Sequence record: NC_007856.1
Source: Enterobacteria phage ID18
DNA: 5,486 nucleotides
Reading direction: 5' to 3' (one strand)
Shown: positions 1 through 5,486 of the stretch, piece by piece
How the letters are laid out: every line of letters begins with the position of its first letter
Position numbering within the stretch: position 1 is the stretch's first letter
Notes under the pieces: model-generated
Told to the model about the DNA's origin: nothing
Databases searched by the model: none
What the model saw: only the letters and a program-made list of their open reading frames with translations
Position numbers and translations under genes: made by a program

Positions 1-3
1 TGT

Positions 4-30
4 TTGACTAACTATCTCTTCACTTAACAT
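4..30 (+). promoter_or_regulatory. Candidate promoter pA (gene A promoter) in the H-A intergenic region
   Basis: -35-like TTGACT at 4-9; weak -10-like TAACAT at 25-30 with a 15-nt spacer. Position matches where phiX174 carries a TTGACA-containing promoter just upstream of the gene A hairpin. The -10 is poor, so the call is tentative. Confidence 0.3.
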
Positions 31-56
31 GCCTCCAAATCAACGGAGGCTTTTCT
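31..56 (+). terminator. GC-rich hairpin (GCCTCC / 8-nt loop / GGAGGC) followed by a TTTTCT run; candidate intrinsic terminator that also contains the gene A Shine-Dalgarno
   Basis: Seen directly: 31-36 GCCTCC pairs perfectly with 45-50 GGAGGC (6-bp stem, loop 37-44), followed by TTTTCT at 51-56. As I recall it, phiX174 has a near-identical GCCTCCAAATCTTGGAGGC-TTTTTT element immediately before the A start codon. Confidence 0.5.
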
Positions 57-58
57 AC

Positions 59-1729
59 ATGCAACAACACTTAACCGCTTCGGACTTCTACCGCAAACCA
101 ATAATCGACGCTATCAAACCTCTTGTCGAAACTGCTGGTATGTCTGTGCTAACTCAATCTCCTAACCTCCGTATCTGGAAACAGTGCAACACTCGCGTAA
201 AACTGCTGGAAGAAATTCTAAATCATTACACTAACGGTATTCGCCGTGATGATAATGGTGACTTCTTTCTCAACCCTGAATGCCAACTCGCCACTACAAT
301 TGCTTATCGTGCTCACAAAAAGGGCCATAACCCTCGCTTTAAACAATACCCTGAGTCATTCACTCTGGACGATATTATTACTGGCAAACCAATTCCTCAG
401 ACTGCCCCTTCTGAGCTTCAACTTACTGATGAAATCGGTGAGGATTACCGCCTTACTGTACTCTCCATAATCGAAGAGTTAGACGAATGCTACAACGTGC
501 TCGGACAACTTGATATTAATAACACTATAGACCACAAACCTATCGGTAACGCCAAATGGGACTTAATGTATGAAAAACCTGTCTATAAACACTGGTATGA
601 ACTGGTATCAAAACGACCCCTTAAATCAATCAGAGAGGACTACAACTATGCAAAGGCTAAGGGTACTAAAGATGAGTGCTCGAAAATCCTTGAGGAATCC
701 ACCATGAAATCCCGCCGTGGCTTTACCGTTCAGAGATTGATGAATGCTATGCGTACTGCCCACACTGATGGCTGGTATGTTGTATTCGATACTCTCACCT
801 TAGCTGATGATCGTATTAAGGACTTCTATGCTAACCCCAATGCTCTTCGTGACTATTTCCGTGATATTGGCCGTATGGTTCTCACTGCCGAGGGTCGTTC
901 GGTCCATGATTCATCTTCGGACTGCTATCAGTACTTTTGTGTGCCTGAGTATGGCACCCAGCATGGCCGTTTACACTTTCACGCAGTGCATCTTATGCGC
1001 ACACTTCCTTTGGGTTCTCTCGACCCTAACTTTGGTAAGCTGGTGCGTACTAATCGGCAAATAAATAGCTTGCAAAACACATGGCCTTATGGTTACTCTA
1101 TGCCCATCGCAGTCCGGTATTCTCAGGATGCTTTCTCTCGCGCTGGATGGCTCTGGCCTGTCGATACAAAGGGTGAACCCCTTAAATCCACCTCGTATAT
1201 GGCTGTAGGCTTCTACGTTGCTAAATACGTTAATAAAAAATCTGATGTTGACATAGCCGCAAAAGGCTTAGGGAATCAAAAATGGAACGCTACATTAAAA
1301 ACGCAGATGGCTCTTTTACCAAAGAAACTATTTCGAATTCGAATGAGCCGCAACTTCGGGATGAAACTACTCCCAATGACGACGCTGACCGCGGAGTGTT
1401 TAATCCAACTGACCCAAGTGGGTTACGACGTGACCCCGTTCAACAACATCTTGAAGCAGAACGCCAAGAAAGAGCTACGATTGAGGCTGGCAAAGCAATC
1501 TGTAGCCGACGTTTTGGAGGCGCAACCTGTGACGACCAATCTGCTAAAATTCATGCGCAATTTGACCCGAACAATCGGAGCGTCCAGCCTACAGAGTTTT
1601 ATCGCTTCAATGACGCAGAAATTAGCAAATACGGATATTTCTGATGAAACTAAAAACTACGTTACTAATGCAGGAATTGCTGTTGCTGACTTACGACTTA
1701 AATCGAAGTGGACTGCTGGTGGAAAATGA
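59..1729 (+). CDS. A: Replication initiation protein A (rolling-circle HUH endonuclease; viral-strand nickase/ligase)
   Basis: Long ORF (frame 2) strongly similar along its C-terminal two thirds to phiX174 protein A as recalled. HUH motif HFHAVH is encoded at about 974-991 and the catalytic YVAKY tyrosines at 1214-1228. Start placed at ATG 59, which has a GGAGG Shine-Dalgarno at 45-49 with 9-nt spacing; the track's ATG at 29 has none. Stop TGA at 1727-1729. Confidence 0.85.
506..535 (+). other. Viral (+) strand origin of rolling-circle replication (30-nt ori core, protein A nick site)
   Basis: Sequence CAACTTGATATTAATAACACTATAGACCAC is identical to the conserved phiX174/G4 origin 30-mer as recalled. 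Protein A is expected to nick between G512 and A513. It lies inside gene A, as in all phiX-like phages. Confidence 0.85.
704..1729 (+). CDS. A*: Protein A* (in-frame internal initiation product of gene A; 341 aa)
   Basis: In-frame ATG at 704 encoding MKSRRGF..., the same N-terminus as phiX174 A*, preceded by GAGG at 692-695. The predicted length of 341 aa equals the phiX174 A* length as recalled. Expression is inferred by homology. Confidence 0.65.
1070..1099 (+). promoter_or_regulatory. Candidate promoter pB (inside gene A, upstream of gene B)
   Basis: -35-like TTGCAA at 1070-1075 and a weak -10-like TACTCT at 1094-1099 (18-nt spacer), about 180 nt upstream of the B start. Position and sequence resemble the phiX174 region TTGCAAAATACGTGGCCTTATGGTTACAGT. 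Weak -10, so low confidence. Confidence 0.3.
1282..1644 (+). CDS. B: Internal scaffolding protein B (120 aa), encoded entirely within gene A in a different frame
   Basis: 120-aa ORF in frame 1 nested in A. The product has the conserved [20 protein letters not shown] and EFYRF...GYF C-terminal motifs of phiX174 protein B. Stop TGA at 1642-1644. Confidence 0.9.
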
Positions 1730-1814
1730 AGAACTTCAATCTCAACTTAAAGAACTCGAGGGCGTCTTACTTCGCAACCTTTCGCCATCATCTCAACGTG
1801 GTAGCAAAGACTGA
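1644..1814 (+). CDS. K: Protein K (56 aa; small membrane-associated protein modulating burst size)
   Basis: Not in the ORF track (short). ATG at 1644-1646 overlaps the B stop (TGATG). Hand translation gives [56 protein letters not shown] (56 aa), closely matching phiX174 K (QELLLLVYELNRSGLLAENE). Frame 0, overlapping the end of A and the start of C; stop TGA at 1812-1814. Confidence 0.8.
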
Positions 1815-1995
1815 CGCGCTTGATGAAGAAAAATGGCTCAATATGATGGGCGCTCTTCTTAAGGACTGGTTCCGCTATGAACAACATTTCGTACATGGCA
1901 AAGAATCAATGCTTGACATTCTAAATGAACGTGGCCTATTATCCACCTTGCCAAATGGCTTAACTTACAAAGGAATCAAAAATGAAAGCAAATGA
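1726..1995 (+). CDS. C: Protein C (89 aa; switches stage II to stage III DNA synthesis and assists ssDNA packaging)
   Basis: ATG at 1726-1728 overlaps the A stop TGA at 1727-1729 (ATGA). The product [21 protein letters not shown]...[13 protein letters not shown]...[13 protein letters not shown] matches phiX174 protein C. The track ORF 1708..1995 begins at an upstream GTG and is probably over-extended. Confidence 0.85.
1913..1942 (+). promoter_or_regulatory. Candidate promoter pD (inside gene C, driving D-E-J-F-G-H)
   Basis: Perfect -35 TTGACA at 1913-1918 and -10 TATTAT at 1937-1942 with an 18-nt spacer, about 40 nt upstream of the D start. The homologous phiX174 sequence GCTTGACATTTTAAAAGAGCGTGGATTACTATC is the known pD location. 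Confidence 0.55.
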
Positions 1996-2443
1996 GAACG
2001 CAGTAGCCTTTCAAACCGCTATTGCCTCCATCAAACTTATTCAGGCATCTTCTGTTCTTGACCTGACTGAGGACGATTTCGAATTCTTAACTCGTGACCG
2101 TGTATGGATTGCAACTGACCGCTCCCGTGCTCGCCGCGCTATTGAGGCTTGCGTTTATGGAACTCTGGACTTTGTGGGATACCCTCGCTTTCCTGCTCCT
2201 ATTGAGTTTATTGCTGCCGTCATTGCTTATTATGTTCATCCCGTTAACATTCAAACGGCATGTCTTATTATGGAAGGCGCTGAATTCACCGAAAACATCA
2301 TTAATGGTGTCGATGCCCCGGTTAAAGCCGCTGAACTCTTCGCGTTTACCTTGCGTGTACGCGCCGGAAACACTGAGCTTATTACTTACGCAGAAAACAA
2401 TGCGCGTGAAAAACTGCGCGCTCAAGGAGTGATGGATGTCTAA
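1982..2443 (+). CDS. D: External scaffolding protein D (153 aa)
   Basis: ORF with AAGGA at 1970-1974 about 7 nt before the ATG. The product is nearly collinear with phiX174 protein D (FQTAIASIKLIQAS..VLDLTEDDF, YGTLDFVGYPRFPAP, IAAVIAYYVHPVNIQTACLIMEGAEFTENIINGV). The start overlaps the C stop at 1993-1995. Confidence 0.92.
   Translation: MKANENAVAFQTAIASIKLIQASSVLDLTEDDFEFLTRDRVWIATDRSRARRAIEACVYGTLDFVGYPRFPAPIEFIAAVIAYYVHPVNIQTACLIMEGAEFTENIINGVDAPVKAAELFAFTLRVRAGNTELITYAENNAREKLRAQGVMDV
2157..2432 (+). CDS. E: Lysis protein E (91 aa; single-gene lysis, MraY inhibitor), nested in gene D in the +1 frame
   Basis: ATG at 2157 with GAGG at 2144-2147. The product MELWTLWDTLAFLLLLSLLLPSLLIMFIP... 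has the hydrophobic N-terminal transmembrane segment with the conserved Pro21 and the ...RLPCVYA... C-terminal region of phiX174 E. The track ORF starts at an upstream GTG (2094) and is over-extended. Confidence 0.85.
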   Translation: MELWTLWDTLAFLLLLSLLLPSLLIMFIPLTFKRHVLLWKALNSPKTSLMVSMPRLKPLNSSRLPCVYAPETLSLLLTQKTMRVKNCALKE

Positions 2444-2516
2444 AAAATCTATTCGCCGCTCTGGTGGCAAATCTAAAGGTGCTCGCCTCTGGTATGTTGG
2501 CGGCACACAATTCTAA
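2436..2516 (+). CDS. J: DNA-binding/packaging protein J (26 aa; small basic core protein)
   Basis: Not in the ORF track (short). AGGAG at 2425-2429, 6 nt before ATG 2436. Hand translation gives MSKKSIRRSGGKSKGARLWYVGGTQF (26 aa), highly basic with the C-terminus GARLWYVGG.QF shared with phiX174 J. The short length is G4-like (phiX174 J is 38 aa). Stop TAA at 2514-2516. Confidence 0.8.
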   Translation: MSKKSIRRSGGKSKGARLWYVGGTQF

Positions 2517-2522
2517 TCTCTA

Positions 2523-2544
2523 AGGGGCTTCGGCCCCTCTATTT
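2523..2544 (+). terminator. J-F intergenic hairpin AGGGGC-TTCG-GCCCCT followed by CTATTT; candidate intrinsic terminator / mRNA-stabilising stem-loop
   Basis: Perfect 6-bp GC-rich stem (2523-2528 with 2533-2538) closed by a TTCG (UUCG-type) tetraloop, followed by a T-containing tail. The analogous position in phiX174 carries the post-J terminator. Confidence 0.55.
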
Positions 2545-2555
2545 AAGGATACAAA

Positions 2556-3836
2556 ATGTCTAACGTACAAACTTCCGCTGAACGTATTCCGCATGACCTC
2601 TCACATCTGGTATTCGAAGCTGGTAAAATCGGACGCCTTAAAACTATCTCCTGGACTCCTGTTGTCGCTGGTGATTCTTACGAAACTGAAATGGTAGGCG
2701 CTATTCGTCTTTCTCCTCTCCGTCGTGGTCTGGCTGTCGACTCTCGCGTCGACGTCTTTACTTTCTATATCCCTCATCGTCATGTCTATGGTCAACAATG
2801 GATTGACTTTATGAAGACTGGCGTTAACGCTACTCCTCTGGCTCCGGTAACTTGTTCCTCTGGCTGGGATTCTGCTGCCTATCTTGGCACTATCCCGTCA
2901 ACTAATTTGAAGGTTCCTAAATTCCTTCATCAATCTTATCTCAATATTTACAACAACTACTTTAAGCCGCCGTGGTCTAATGACCTCACCTATGCTAACC
3001 CATCTAATATGCCCGCTGAGGATTACAAATGGGGCGTTCGTGTCGCTAACTTAAAATCTATCTGGACCGCGCCCCTTCCTCCTGATTCATTAACTAAGCA
3101 GGATATGACTACTGGCGCTACCACTATCGATATTATGGGCCTACAAGCTGCCTATGCTAAACTCCACACTGAACAGGAACGTGACTATTTCATGACTCGC
3201 TACCGCGATATTATGAAAGACTTTGGCGGTCACACCTCCTACGACGGTGATAACCGTCCTCTGCTCCTGATGCGCTCTGAATTTTGGGCCTCTGGCTATG
3301 ACGTCGACGGTACTGACCAAACTTCATTGGGTCAGTTCTCTGGTCGCGTCCAACAAACCTTTAATCATAAAGTGCCTCGCTTCTATGTTCCTGAGCATGG
3401 CGTAATTATGACTTTATCTGTTACTCGCTTCCCTCCTACTCACGAAATGGAAATGCACTATCTCGTCGGTAAGGAATCTCTGACTTATACTGACATTGCC
3501 TGTGACCCTGCTCTTATGGCTAACCTGCCTCCGCGTGAAATTGAGGTAAAAGACCTCTTTCACTCTGCTGGTACTGGTAAATTCAAAATTGCCGAAGGTC
3601 AATGGTATCGTACTCAGCCTGACCGCGTTGCCTTCCCTTATAACGCTCTTGACGGCTTCCCTTTCTATTCTGAACTGCCGTCTAATGATATTCTCGAACG
3701 TGTACTTGTTCGAACTGATAACTATGATGAAATCTTCCAGTCTATGCAACTTGCACACTGGAACATGCAAACTAAATTTAACACTACTGTATATCGTCAT
3801 ATGCCTACCACTCGTGATGGCATCATGACGTCATAA
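2556..3836 (+). CDS. F: Major capsid protein F (426 aa)
   Basis: AAGGA at 2545-2549, 6 nt before the ATG. The product is collinear with phiX174 F along its full length (MSN.QT.AER.PHDLSHL, RLSPLRRGLA.DS, IDIMGLQAAYA.LHT.QERDYFM.RY, GTDQTSLGQFSGRVQQT, LPPREI, FKIAEGQWYR, TTRD.IMTS). Confidence 0.95.
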   Translation: MSNVQTSAERIPHDLSHLVFEAGKIGRLKTISWTPVVAGDSYETEMVGAIRLSPLRRGLAVDSRVDVFTFYIPHRHVYGQQWIDFMKTGVNATPLAPVTCSSGWDSAAYLGTIPSTNLKVPKFLHQSYLNIYNNYFKPPWSNDLTYANPSNMPAEDYKWGVRVANLKSIWTAPLPPDSLTKQDMTTGATTIDIMGLQAAYAKLHTEQERDYFMTRYRDIMKDFGGHTSYDGDNRPLLLMRSEFWASGYDVDGTDQTSLGQFSGRVQQTFNHKVPRFYVPEHGVIMTLSVTRFPPTHEMEMHYLVGKESLTYTDIACDPALMANLPPREIEVKDLFHSAGTGKFKIAEGQWYRTQPDRVAFPYNALDGFPFYSELPSNDILERVLVRTDNYDEIFQSMQLAHWNMQTKFNTTVYRHMPTTRDGIMTS

Positions 3837-3845
3837 AACAAAACG

Positions 3846-3881
3846 TTGAACGGGTACAAATTTTAATTTGTGCCTGTTCAA
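3846..3881 (+). other. F-G intergenic imperfect hairpin (about 13-bp stem including G-T/G-U wobble pairs, AT-rich loop)
   Basis: 3846-3858 (TTGAACGGGTACA) pairs with 3869-3881 (TGTGCCTGTTCAA) around the loop AATTTTAATT. It sits in the 92-nt F-G untranslated region, which in phiX-like phages holds the post-F terminator and complementary-strand priming signals. Confidence 0.4.
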
Positions 3882-3928
3882 GGTTGAACAAGCGAAGCGC
3901 GTTAGCTAACTTACTTAAGGAAATTCTC

Positions 3929-4462
3929 ATGTTTCAAACTTATCTCTCTAAACATAATTCTCCGTTAACTTCTCTGTCTATTACTGCTACAAAAACACCT
4001 GCGGCTGCTGCTCCGATTATTTCTACACCGGAGCTTAGCCGCTCTACTATTTTCGCTGGCTTAACTCTGACTGCTGCCACTACTCATTCTGGTGTCGCTC
4101 ATGTCGTTCGTATTGACGAAACCAATCCTACTGACAATCAGGTCTTATCGGTCGCCGCTTCTTTATCTGGCGTACCGTCTGATGCTATTGCTATTGCTAT
4201 TCGCTTTGAGGTCGCTGACGGTACCGTCCCTACTGCTCTCCCTGCTCTCTACTCTGCTTATCCGGTGGAATTCTTCACTTCTGGCGCTGCTCTGTCTTGT
4301 AAGGATGCCGTATCTATTCCGACGCATCCTGTTACTGCTGGTAATGATGTATATGCTGGTATTCTTATCTGGTCCAAATCTTGGTCCGCTGGTGTCGTCT
4401 CCGGCCTCTTATCTGTTAATCAGGTAAACCGTGAAACTACCGTACTCCAACCTCTTAAATAA
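3929..4462 (+). CDS. G: Major spike protein G (177 aa)
   Basis: ATG at 3929 preceded by TAAGGA at 3916-3921. The product begins MFQTYLSKHNS (phiX174 G begins MFQTFISRHNS) and ends ...SLNQVNRETTVLQPLK (phiX174 ...SLNQVIKEIICLQPLK). The track ORF starts at an upstream TTG (3884) and is over-extended. Confidence 0.88.
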   Translation: MFQTYLSKHNSPLTSLSITATKTPAAAAPIISTPELSRSTIFAGLTLTAATTHSGVAHVVRIDETNPTDNQVLSVAASLSGVPSDAIAIAIRFEVADGTVPTALPALYSAYPVEFFTSGAALSCKDAVSIPTHPVTAGNDVYAGILIWSKSWSAGVVSGLLSVNQVNRETTVLQPLK

Positions 4463-4472
4463 GGTCTAATCT

Positions 4473-5486
4473 ATGTTCGGTGCAATCGCTGGCGGTATCG
4501 CCTCCTCTCTCGCTGGTGGACTCCTGAACAAAGCATTCGGGGGCGGTTCTTCCGCTCCCCAATCTGGCGTTCAAGGTAATGTCCTCGCTACTGACAATAA
4601 TGTAATCGGTGCTAATGATGCTGGTATCAAATCCGCTATTCAGGGTTCTAATCCTCCCAATGGTCAACAAGCTGCTCCCAATGCTATATCGGGCGTTCTT
4701 GCCGATACTGGCAAAGACGCCCTATCTTCAATCACTGGCGCTGGCGTTAATAAACTTATGGAAAAAATCGGACTCTCTAAAGATGCTGCTGCTAAAGGTA
4801 AGGATACGAAAGATTATCTTGCTTCTGCGTTCCCCGAACTCAACCCGTGGGAACGTGCTGGCGCTGGTGCTTCTTCTGCTGGAATGGTTGATGCGGGATT
4901 CCAAAACCAAAAGGAATTAACTCGCATGCAGCTTGACAATCAAAAAGAAATCGCTAAGATGCAAAACGACACTCAAAAGGATATCGCTGGTATCCAGTCT
5001 GTTACTTCTCGGCAAAATACTAAGGACTCTGTGTATGCTCAAAACGAAATGCTCCAATACAACCAAAAAGAATCTATGTCACGCGTTGGCGCTATTCTCG
5101 AAAACACAAGCCTCACCAAACAACAACAAACTTCTGAAATTATGCGGCAAATGCTTACTCAGGCTCAAACCTCAGGTCAACACTTTACAAATGACCAAAT
5201 CCAAGAACTTACTCGAAAGGTCGGCGCTGATATTGATGCTGTTCGTGCTAACACTGAACGTACACATGTAGAAACGGACCGCTCTAAGCAGGAGGTCCAA
5301 AACTCTCGTTACGCTTCCTCACAAGTCGGTAAAACCGCCAAGGATGTATCAAATGTCATTAGTGACGCATCTTCTGGTATTGTTGATTATTTTCGTGGCG
5401 TTGATAAAGCTGTCGCGGATACTTGGAACAATTATTTCAAAGATGGCAAATCGGATGGGATAAGCTCAAACCATCGTACCAAATAA
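4473..5486 (+). CDS. H: Minor spike / DNA pilot protein H (337 aa)
   Basis: AAGG at 4461-4464, 8 nt before the ATG. The product is collinear with phiX174 H ([132 protein letters not shown]). Stop TAA is the last three bases of the window. Confidence 0.93.

Follow-up and report, generated by a model that had tools for sequence, protein, structure and literature searches.

Coliphage ID18 record NC_007856.1 as a very probably complete, circular genome of a published G4-like microvirus

The stretch of DNA analyzed here, referred to as the window, is the 5,486-nucleotide (nt) sequence record NC_007856.1 of Enterobacteria phage ID18, read on one strand from 5' to 3'. ID18 was reportedly published by Rokyta et al. 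in 2006 (J Bacteriol 188:1134). The analysis established the identity of the record, its intact genes, its circular junction, a conserved replication origin, promoter blocks, and hairpins. The genes A, A*, B, K, C, D, E, J, F, G, and H follow each other in this order in nested and overlapping frames, all on the + strand, which is the genome plan of the Bullavirinae. An initial annotation made from the sequence alone had described eleven canonical genes, complete and in canonical order on one strand, and the six-frame list of open reading frames (ORFs), the annotation of the related phage WA14, and Pfam all agreed with it. The genes and the intergenic region that precedes them are the following.

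1-58, + strand: H-A intergenic region, formed on closing the circle after the H stop codon at 5484-5486.
59-1729, + strand: gene A, rolling-circle replication initiator, 556 amino acids (aa); Phage_GPA, E = 1.8e-57; identical to AAZ49368.1/YP_512788.1.
704-1729, + strand: gene A*, from an internal in-frame start of A, 341 aa; annotated in WA14, G4, and ID2.
1282-1644, + strand: gene B, internal scaffolding protein, 120 aa; out of frame inside A; Phage_B, E = 8e-51.
1644-1814, + strand: gene K, 56 aa; overlaps both A and B at their ends and C at its start; Protein_K, E = 6e-15.
1726-1995, + strand: gene C, DNA maturation and switch to single-stranded DNA (ssDNA) synthesis, 89 aa; Phage_C, E = 2e-37.
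1982-2443, + strand: gene D, external scaffolding protein, 153 aa; overlaps J by 8 nt; gpD, E = 4.5e-83.
2157-2432, + strand: gene E, lysis protein, 91 aa; out of frame inside D; Microvir_lysis, E = 2.6e-16.
2436-2516, + strand: gene J, DNA-binding packaging protein, 26 aa; Microvir_J, E = 2.3e-16.
2556-3836, + strand: gene F, major capsid protein, 426 aa; Phage_F, E = 6e-158; 100% identical to WA14 F.
3929-4462, + strand: gene G, major spike protein, 177 aa; Phage_G, E = 1.7e-32.
4473-5486, + strand: gene H, DNA pilot or minor spike protein, 337 aa; Microvir_H, E = 2.6e-136; its stop codon ends the window.

Every gene was open, started with ATG, and was preceded by a purine-rich ribosome-binding motif, and all 10 distinct proteins scored above the Pfam gathering score of the expected family. 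The internal start of A* is an ATG with GAGG upstream, and the resulting product has 341 aa in all relatives. The proteins gpA, gpB, gpE, gpG, and gpH matched the ID18 protein entries letter for letter, and gpB and gpE of the window differed from those of both WA14 and EMCL318 (5 residues in B and 9 in E). Coding sequence accounted for 96.4% of the window, of which 831 nt belong to at least two genes. The length of 5,486 nt lies within the approximately 5.4-6.1 kb of the small circular Bullavirinae genomes, and two markers of this subfamily, D (gpD, E = 4.5e-83) and G (Phage_G, E = 1.7e-32), were both present. To our knowledge, the external scaffolding protein D and the major spike protein G are absent from gokushoviruses. 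The + strand consisted of 28% T and 20% G; a T-rich and G-poor + strand is typical of phages with ssDNA virions and is no proof of strandedness. No family was found in the Rfam scan of the window.

We estimate with a probability of about 97% that the window is the complete circular ssDNA genome (viral + strand) of ID18, a published Gequatrovirus, opened directly after the H stop codon. Coliphage ID18 is listed with 5,486 bp and 11 genes in a published table (PMC3135560), NC_007856.1 is grouped with the G4 microviruses in another (PMC6883844), and WA14, ID18, and EMCL318 form one cluster inside the G4 clade (PMC6316680). The complete genome is already known and published and is an ordinary finding, and the low novelty initially assigned to a genome of this kind was confirmed. 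It provides the frame for all other observations on the window, for which the biology of phiX174 and G4 serves as the reference. The findings leave known phage biology unchanged, and the residual interest is comparative only; it concerns the type of complementary-strand (-) origin in relation to the clade label, a difference of 3 nt in a promoter spacer, and a D/E segment that leans towards phiX174.

In a megablast comparison of the whole window with 50,697 phage records, 568 microvirus records were matched. The closest was WA14 (DQ079909.1; 98.4% identity), followed by EMCL318 (MG563770.1; 97.5%), and all further matches had identities of at most 90%. WA14 is also 5,486 nt long, aligned from 1-5486 to 1-5486 with zero insertions or deletions, and has identical gene coordinates. 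EMCL318 has 5,489 nt and the same gene order, with 3 extra nt in the spacer of the promoter pA. The window was colinear from end to end with these two records, which are flagged as circular and complete, and, more distantly, with those of ID2 and G4. The G4 reference record (NC_001420.2, the type of Gequatrovirus) shares its opening point with the window: A begins at 59, and the final base belongs to the H stop. The window thus follows the G4 numbering convention.

The initial annotation had placed the start of A 58 nt into the window and the end of the window on the H stop codon, and had proposed that joining the two ends recreates the H-A intergenic region. The H stop is the TAA at 5484-5486, and the joined ends produced a spacer of 58 nt, which aligned with the H-A spacers of WA14, EMCL318, ID2, G4, and phiX174. 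The closure was examined using contigs with near-identical H proteins from public sequencing runs, which were aligned to the doubled window; the H proteins of relatives were used as queries, since the assembly index lists no contig for the exact ID18 gpH. Logan and JGI contigs of relatives crossed the end-to-start junction of the window unbroken, which corroborated the proposed circularity in these relatives. Five of them (L010, L019, L023, L024, and L025) showed exact terminal overlaps of 30-79 nt, corresponding to circular units of 5,489-5,501 nt, and each yielded one high-scoring segment pair running through the 5486-to-1 junction at 92-97% identity.

Several observations weigh against a complete and closed genome. 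The window itself has no terminal redundancy, and circularity was observed in relatives that are 92-97% identical and not in this molecule. Moreover, its H-A spacer is 3 nt shorter than that of the nine relatives with a measured spacer. It comprises 58 nt in ID18 and WA14 and 61 nt in EMCL318 and six metagenome contigs that were read directly, as well as in two further contigs according to their called gene positions. The 3 extra nt fall at window position 10/11, and the junction sequence of ID18 or WA14 would read TGACTAACTATC in the 58-nt form and TGACTAAAATCTATC in a form with 3 additional nt. A 3-nt omission common to the two 2006 records (ID18 and WA14) may account for this difference, and the H-A spacer is the single spot where the absence of missing bases cannot be fully secured. 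An exact junction-spanning pattern found no match in IMG/VR, and four IMG/VR contigs with a looser junction 19-mer had no BLAST similarity to the window and were rejected as chance matches.

The lack of terminal redundancy and the 3-nt difference could be taken to mean that the window is no full circle, through incomplete assembly, faulty closure, or chimerism, or because it is a fragment lying in host DNA. We regard this as very improbable, as circular, complete records of equal size run colinear with the window from one end to the other, the five circular contigs passed the junction without a break, and all genes and the four spacers were accounted for. No match was obtained in 20,395 Escherichia coli records, and no similar DNA was detected in 5,426 complete E. 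coli genomes, which excludes an integrated or chimeric context; host flanks of this kind had been named initially as an observation that would speak against a free phage genome. The same had been said of a closest relative with a different genome length and extra sequence between H and A, and the closest relatives proved to be of the same length class, with H-A spacers of 58 or 61 nt.

The assignment to the G4-like lineage, which the initial annotation had derived from a J of 26 aa and an A of roughly 556 aa, was upheld by phylogeny and taxonomy (genus Gequatrovirus) and by protein identities. Whole-genome identity was 81.6% to ID2, 78.1% to G4 (about 78-80%), and 64.2% to phiX174. The A, F, and H proteins were 83-90% identical to those of G4 and ID2 (83-88% for G4 alone), 62-68% to those of phiX174, and 40-64% to those of alpha3. 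Based on these protein and genome identities, the label G4-like is correct. The length of A is discriminating, with 556 aa in the window, 513 aa in phiX174, and 494 aa in alpha3. The length of J alone is not, as J has 25-26 aa in G4-like phages, 38 aa in phiX174, and 24 aa in alpha3, and that part of the original argument did not hold. The H-A spacer of alpha3 measures 758 nt in a genome of 6,087 nt. The G4-like phages are set apart from the other clades by the length of A, the genome size, and the short H-A spacer, and the window has the sizes typical of Gequatrovirus (about 554-556 aa for A, 25-26 aa for J, about 58-61 nt for the H-A spacer, and 5.47-5.58 kb for the genome).

Some parts of the genome would fit a member of the phiX174-like or the alpha3-like clade. 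The spacer between F and G belongs to the phiX174 type, protein E shares 75.8% identity with its phiX174 counterpart and 55.2% with that of G4, positions 2301-2400 are closer to phiX174 (86%) than to G4 (75%), and J with 26 aa is near the 24 aa of alpha3. Against these stand the genome-wide identities to G4 and ID2 (78-82%, compared with 64% to phiX174), the A, F, and H identities and the A length given above, the long H-A spacer and larger genome of alpha3, and the taxonomy, which lists ID18 in Gequatrovirus. A placement outside the G4-like clade is therefore extremely improbable, even more so than an incomplete assembly, and we retain ID18 as a G4-like phage.

At the species level, NCBI files both ID18 and WA14 under Gequatrovirus G4. 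The phage species criterion of the International Committee on Taxonomy of Viruses is a genome identity of at least 95% to the exemplar. ID18 lies below this value, with approximately 78-80% identity to G4 and approximately 82% to ID2 (G. talmos), and the group of ID18, WA14, and EMCL318 would be a species of its own under the usual 95% rule.

G4 shares with ID18 the eleven genes, the point of linearization, the 58-nt H-A spacer, and the 30-nt viral-strand origin, ori(+). Its A has 554 aa compared to 556 aa in ID18 and its J has 25 aa compared to 26 aa, and G4 possesses a primase-dependent origin with an annotated RNA primer between F and G, which ID18 lacks. G4 is 91 nt longer. Coordinate arithmetic from the WA14 and G4 annotations, together with the alignment, assigned approximately 44 nt of the excess to the F-G spacer and approximately 47 nt to the interval between D/E and J, with small changes in the J-F spacer and in F; it is offset by 6 additional nt in ID18 in the interval from A to the start of D, where A is 2 codons longer than in G4. 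phiX174 (NC_001422.1) has the same genome plan, an identical ori(+), and homologous pA, T_H with the ribosome-binding site of A, pB, pD, T_J, and F-G hairpin. It differs in overall identity (64%), in the lengths of A (513 aa) and J (38 aa), in the H-A spacer (63 nt), and in the spacer between the pA hexamers (17 nt). The corresponding elements of the window are the following.

4-30, + strand: pA promoter homologue; -35 TTGACT (4-9), 15-nt spacer, -10-like TAACAT (25-30).
31-54, + strand: T_H, terminator-like hairpin; GCCTCC, 8-nt loop, and GGAGGC (31-50), then TTTT (51-54).
506-535, + strand: viral (+) strand origin; conserved 30-mer CAACTTGATATTAATAACACTATAGACCAC, an exact match of which none is expected by chance.
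1070-1099, + strand: pB promoter homologue inside gene A; TTGCAA (1070-1075) and TACTCT (1094-1099).
1913-1942, + strand: pD promoter homologue; TTGACA (1913-1918), 18-nt spacer, TATTAT (1937-1942).
2523-2545, + strand: T_J, terminator-like hairpin by RNA folding; GGGGCTTCGGCCCC, then TCTATTT, in the 39-nt J-F spacer.
3842-3885, + strand: long F-G hairpin of 19 pairs, homologue of the phiX174 T_F terminator, ori(-), and PriA-binding hairpin.
3892-3900, + strand: mini-hairpin GCGAAGCGC, directly 3' of the long hairpin; invariant in all eight aligned phages.

The F-G spacer of the window has 92 nt (3837-3928). It was 100% identical to those of WA14 and EMCL318, and matched those of the ID2 group at approximately 79% and phiX174 positions 2308-2371 at approximately 80%. 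In phiX174, this interval contains the T_F terminator and ori(-) hairpin, which is bound by PriA, followed by a short downstream hairpin at 2353-2373; the mini-hairpin of the window corresponds to part of the latter, which is sensitive to mutation in phiX174 (preprint 10.64898/2026.07.25.740675). The DNA fold of the long hairpin had an energy of -16.7 kcal/mol (z = -3.9). Across eight phages, nine of the 19 pairs were changed on both sides in a compensatory manner, pairing was retained in 98.9% of cells compared to 38-53% when the partner was slid, and none of 500 shuffles reached the observed covariation values. In the phage Lilleto, a 2-nt insertion in the 5' arm, read from the alignment, pairs with the 2-nt bulge of the 3' arm of the ID2 type. 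The hairpin is probably the complementary-strand origin of ID18, as judged from its homology and covariation.

Origins of the G4 type are used by primase alone and consist of three stem-loops and a primer start. The F-G spacer of G4 (3884-4019) carries the annotated RNA primer and the origin of complementary-strand synthesis, and it was found at an identity of at least 90% in 365 records, including G4, ID11, WA5, NC19, and NC6. Neither WA14 and EMCL318 nor the ID2 group appeared among the 60 matches sampled from these 365, whose listed genomes have 5,529-5,577 nt. When the G4 origin was searched against the window, no significant match was obtained anywhere, and the only shared word was a 13-mer in gene G. 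As far as sequence comparison can tell, the primase-only origin of the G4 type is absent from ID18. Its counterpart in alpha3 is located in the G-H spacer (4959-5091, 77% identity), and the type of (-) origin therefore does not follow the clade. The evidence leans modestly towards the ID18, WA14, and EMCL318 lineage and the ID2 group priming at the phiX174-type PriA hairpin and not at a G4-type primase-only origin. From the location of the G4-type origin between F and G in G4, between G and H in alpha3, and nowhere in ID18, we infer that the (-) origin has moved among these clades as a module; if this is true, it would represent a swappable cassette among these phages. A literature search on (-) origin types within the G4 clade returned nothing relevant, and Rokyta et al. 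2006 may already state the point.

The 13-mer in gene G, CCGTCCCTACTGC (4224-4236), reproduces without a mismatch the 13 bases of the G4 primer start site (G4 3987-3999) and is preceded by the 12-nt palindrome GACGGTACCGTC, the two together occupying 4216-4236. It was considered as a G4-type origin and judged to be a probable coding coincidence. At 4225, a T that mismatches the 13-mer is present in WA14 and in three metagenome relatives, and gene G of G4 itself reads ...TTCCTACTGC at the same place.

The H-A junction was initially described as having the phiX174 layout of H stop, promoter containing TTGAC, hairpin, and A start. This layout was found, with TTGAC at 4-8, and with the qualification that the hexamers are separated by 15 nt and not by the 17 nt of phiX174. 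In an alignment of the junctions of six genomes (the window, WA14, EMCL318, ID2, G4, and phiX174), TTGAC, the -10-like hexamer abutting the hairpin, and GCCTCC...GGAGGC with its T run were conserved. The pA elements of the window aligned with TTGACA at 3927-3932 and TTTCAT at 3950-3955 of phiX174, which saturation mutagenesis identified as the -35 and a degenerate -10 element of pA (preprint 10.64898/2026.07.25.740675). The phiX174 transcription start site (TSS) is annotated at 3962 (NC_001422), within the hairpin loop, and the start in ID18 is expected near 37-39, likewise in the loop. By homology to phiX174 pA, TTGACT and TAACAT would thus act as the pA promoter of ID18. The TTGACT site was not called in a generic promoter scan of the window because its 15-nt spacer is outside the 16-18 range of the tool.

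The pA spacer (10-24) has 15 nt in ID18 and WA14, 18 nt in EMCL318, the six directly read metagenome relatives, G4, and ID2, and 17 nt in phiX174. The short form is either a real 3-nt deletion that would be expected to weaken or shift pA or an omission common to both 2006 records.

The T_H hairpin was the top terminator-like site in the generic scan of the window. Its 3' arm holds GGAGG (45-49), the ribosome-binding site of gene A, as in phiX174, where the 3' stem of T_H overlaps the GGAGG of gene A (preprint 10.64898/2026.07.25.740675). The mechanical ORF of A (566 aa) starts from an in-frame ATG at 29, which was rejected as the start codon; it lies within the hairpin and upstream of the expected pA start, lacks a Shine-Dalgarno sequence, and is unused in every annotated relative. 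A GGAGG motif precedes the ATG at 59 by 9 nt. Located at the foot of the T_H hairpin, the ATG at 29 would be translatable only from read-through transcripts.

The 30-mer of ori(+) inside gene A is identical in G4, ID2, WA14, EMCL318, and phiX174. Alignment with the phiX174 rep_origin at 4306 places the predicted gpA nick between G512 and A513. The pB block was near-invariant in the six genomes aligned to phiX174 4855-4905 (TSS annotated at 4899), and pB is predicted by this homology to start transcription near 1106 in ID18. With 11 of 12 matches, pD was the best promoter-like site in the window, and its block aligned with TTGACA...TACTAT of phiX174. Transcription from phiX174 pD starts at a position that we take to be nt 358, and the pD start in ID18 is expected near 1949-1950. 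The T_J hairpin sequence is identical in phiX174, ID2, WA14, and EMCL318, and T_J is among the non-coding elements described for phiX174 (preprint 10.64898/2026.07.25.740675).

The life cycle proposed for ID18 applies established knowledge of the phiX174 and G4 family by homology, and the elements are presumed to be active in ID18. The incoming + strand would be converted into a duplex by host enzymes, starting at the F-G hairpin origin, and priming of the complementary strand would be of the phiX174 type (PriA primosome) and not of the G4 type (primase alone). Host RNA polymerase would transcribe from pA, pB, and pD and read past the leaky hairpin terminators that follow J, F, G, and H. Protein A would nick the 30-nt origin in its own gene (512/513) to begin rolling-circle replication, and protein C would mediate the switch from replication to packaging. 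F, G, and H would be assembled on the B and D scaffolds, with J entering together with the DNA, and E would finally block MraY and cause cell lysis.

Among the genes, G was the most divergent compared with ID2 (48%) and G4 (67%). C has 89 aa in the window compared to 84 aa in G4 and ID2 and 86 aa in phiX174, and it overlaps D by 14 nt (1982-1995), as in WA14 and EMCL318. At 2430-2443, a 1-nt deletion (ATGGATG) relative to the phiX174 and ID2 junction ATGTAATG removes the D stop codon, and D is consequently 2 residues longer and shares 8 nt with J. The longer D and the D/J overlap are also common to WA14 and EMCL318, and these two phages have the same F-G spacer, C of 89 aa, and D of 153 aa as ID18.

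Segment 2100-2400, comprising the 3' part of D and the nested E, resembles phiX174 at least as closely as it does other G4-like phages. For positions 2301-2400, identities were 86% to phiX174, 80% to ID2, and 75% to G4, and G4 and phiX174 were 72% identical to each other. It is possible, judging from these identities, that the segment is a tract of recombination between clades.

ID18 and WA14 differ by 86 substitutions. In A, C, D, F, and H, 74 synonymous and 6 nonsynonymous changes were counted, a ratio that indicates purifying selection at the sequence level. The synonymous and nonsynonymous changes of the individual genes were 38:3 for A, 6:0 for C, 12:0 for D, 8:0 for F, and 10:3 for H. 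The overlapping or nested genes were changed as well, with ratios of 2:6 for B, 0:3 for K, and 2:9 for E. The differences between the two phages were clustered, for example with 13 located within 715-811, a hint of patchy exchange among closely related phages. Circular relatives of ID18 with identities of 92-97% were found in SRR26885031-33, SRR21112064, SRR26638132/142/148, ERR2001096/116, and JGI 3300045988; their occurrence in several unrelated runs and metagenomes suggests that the ID18 lineage is common in the sampled environments.

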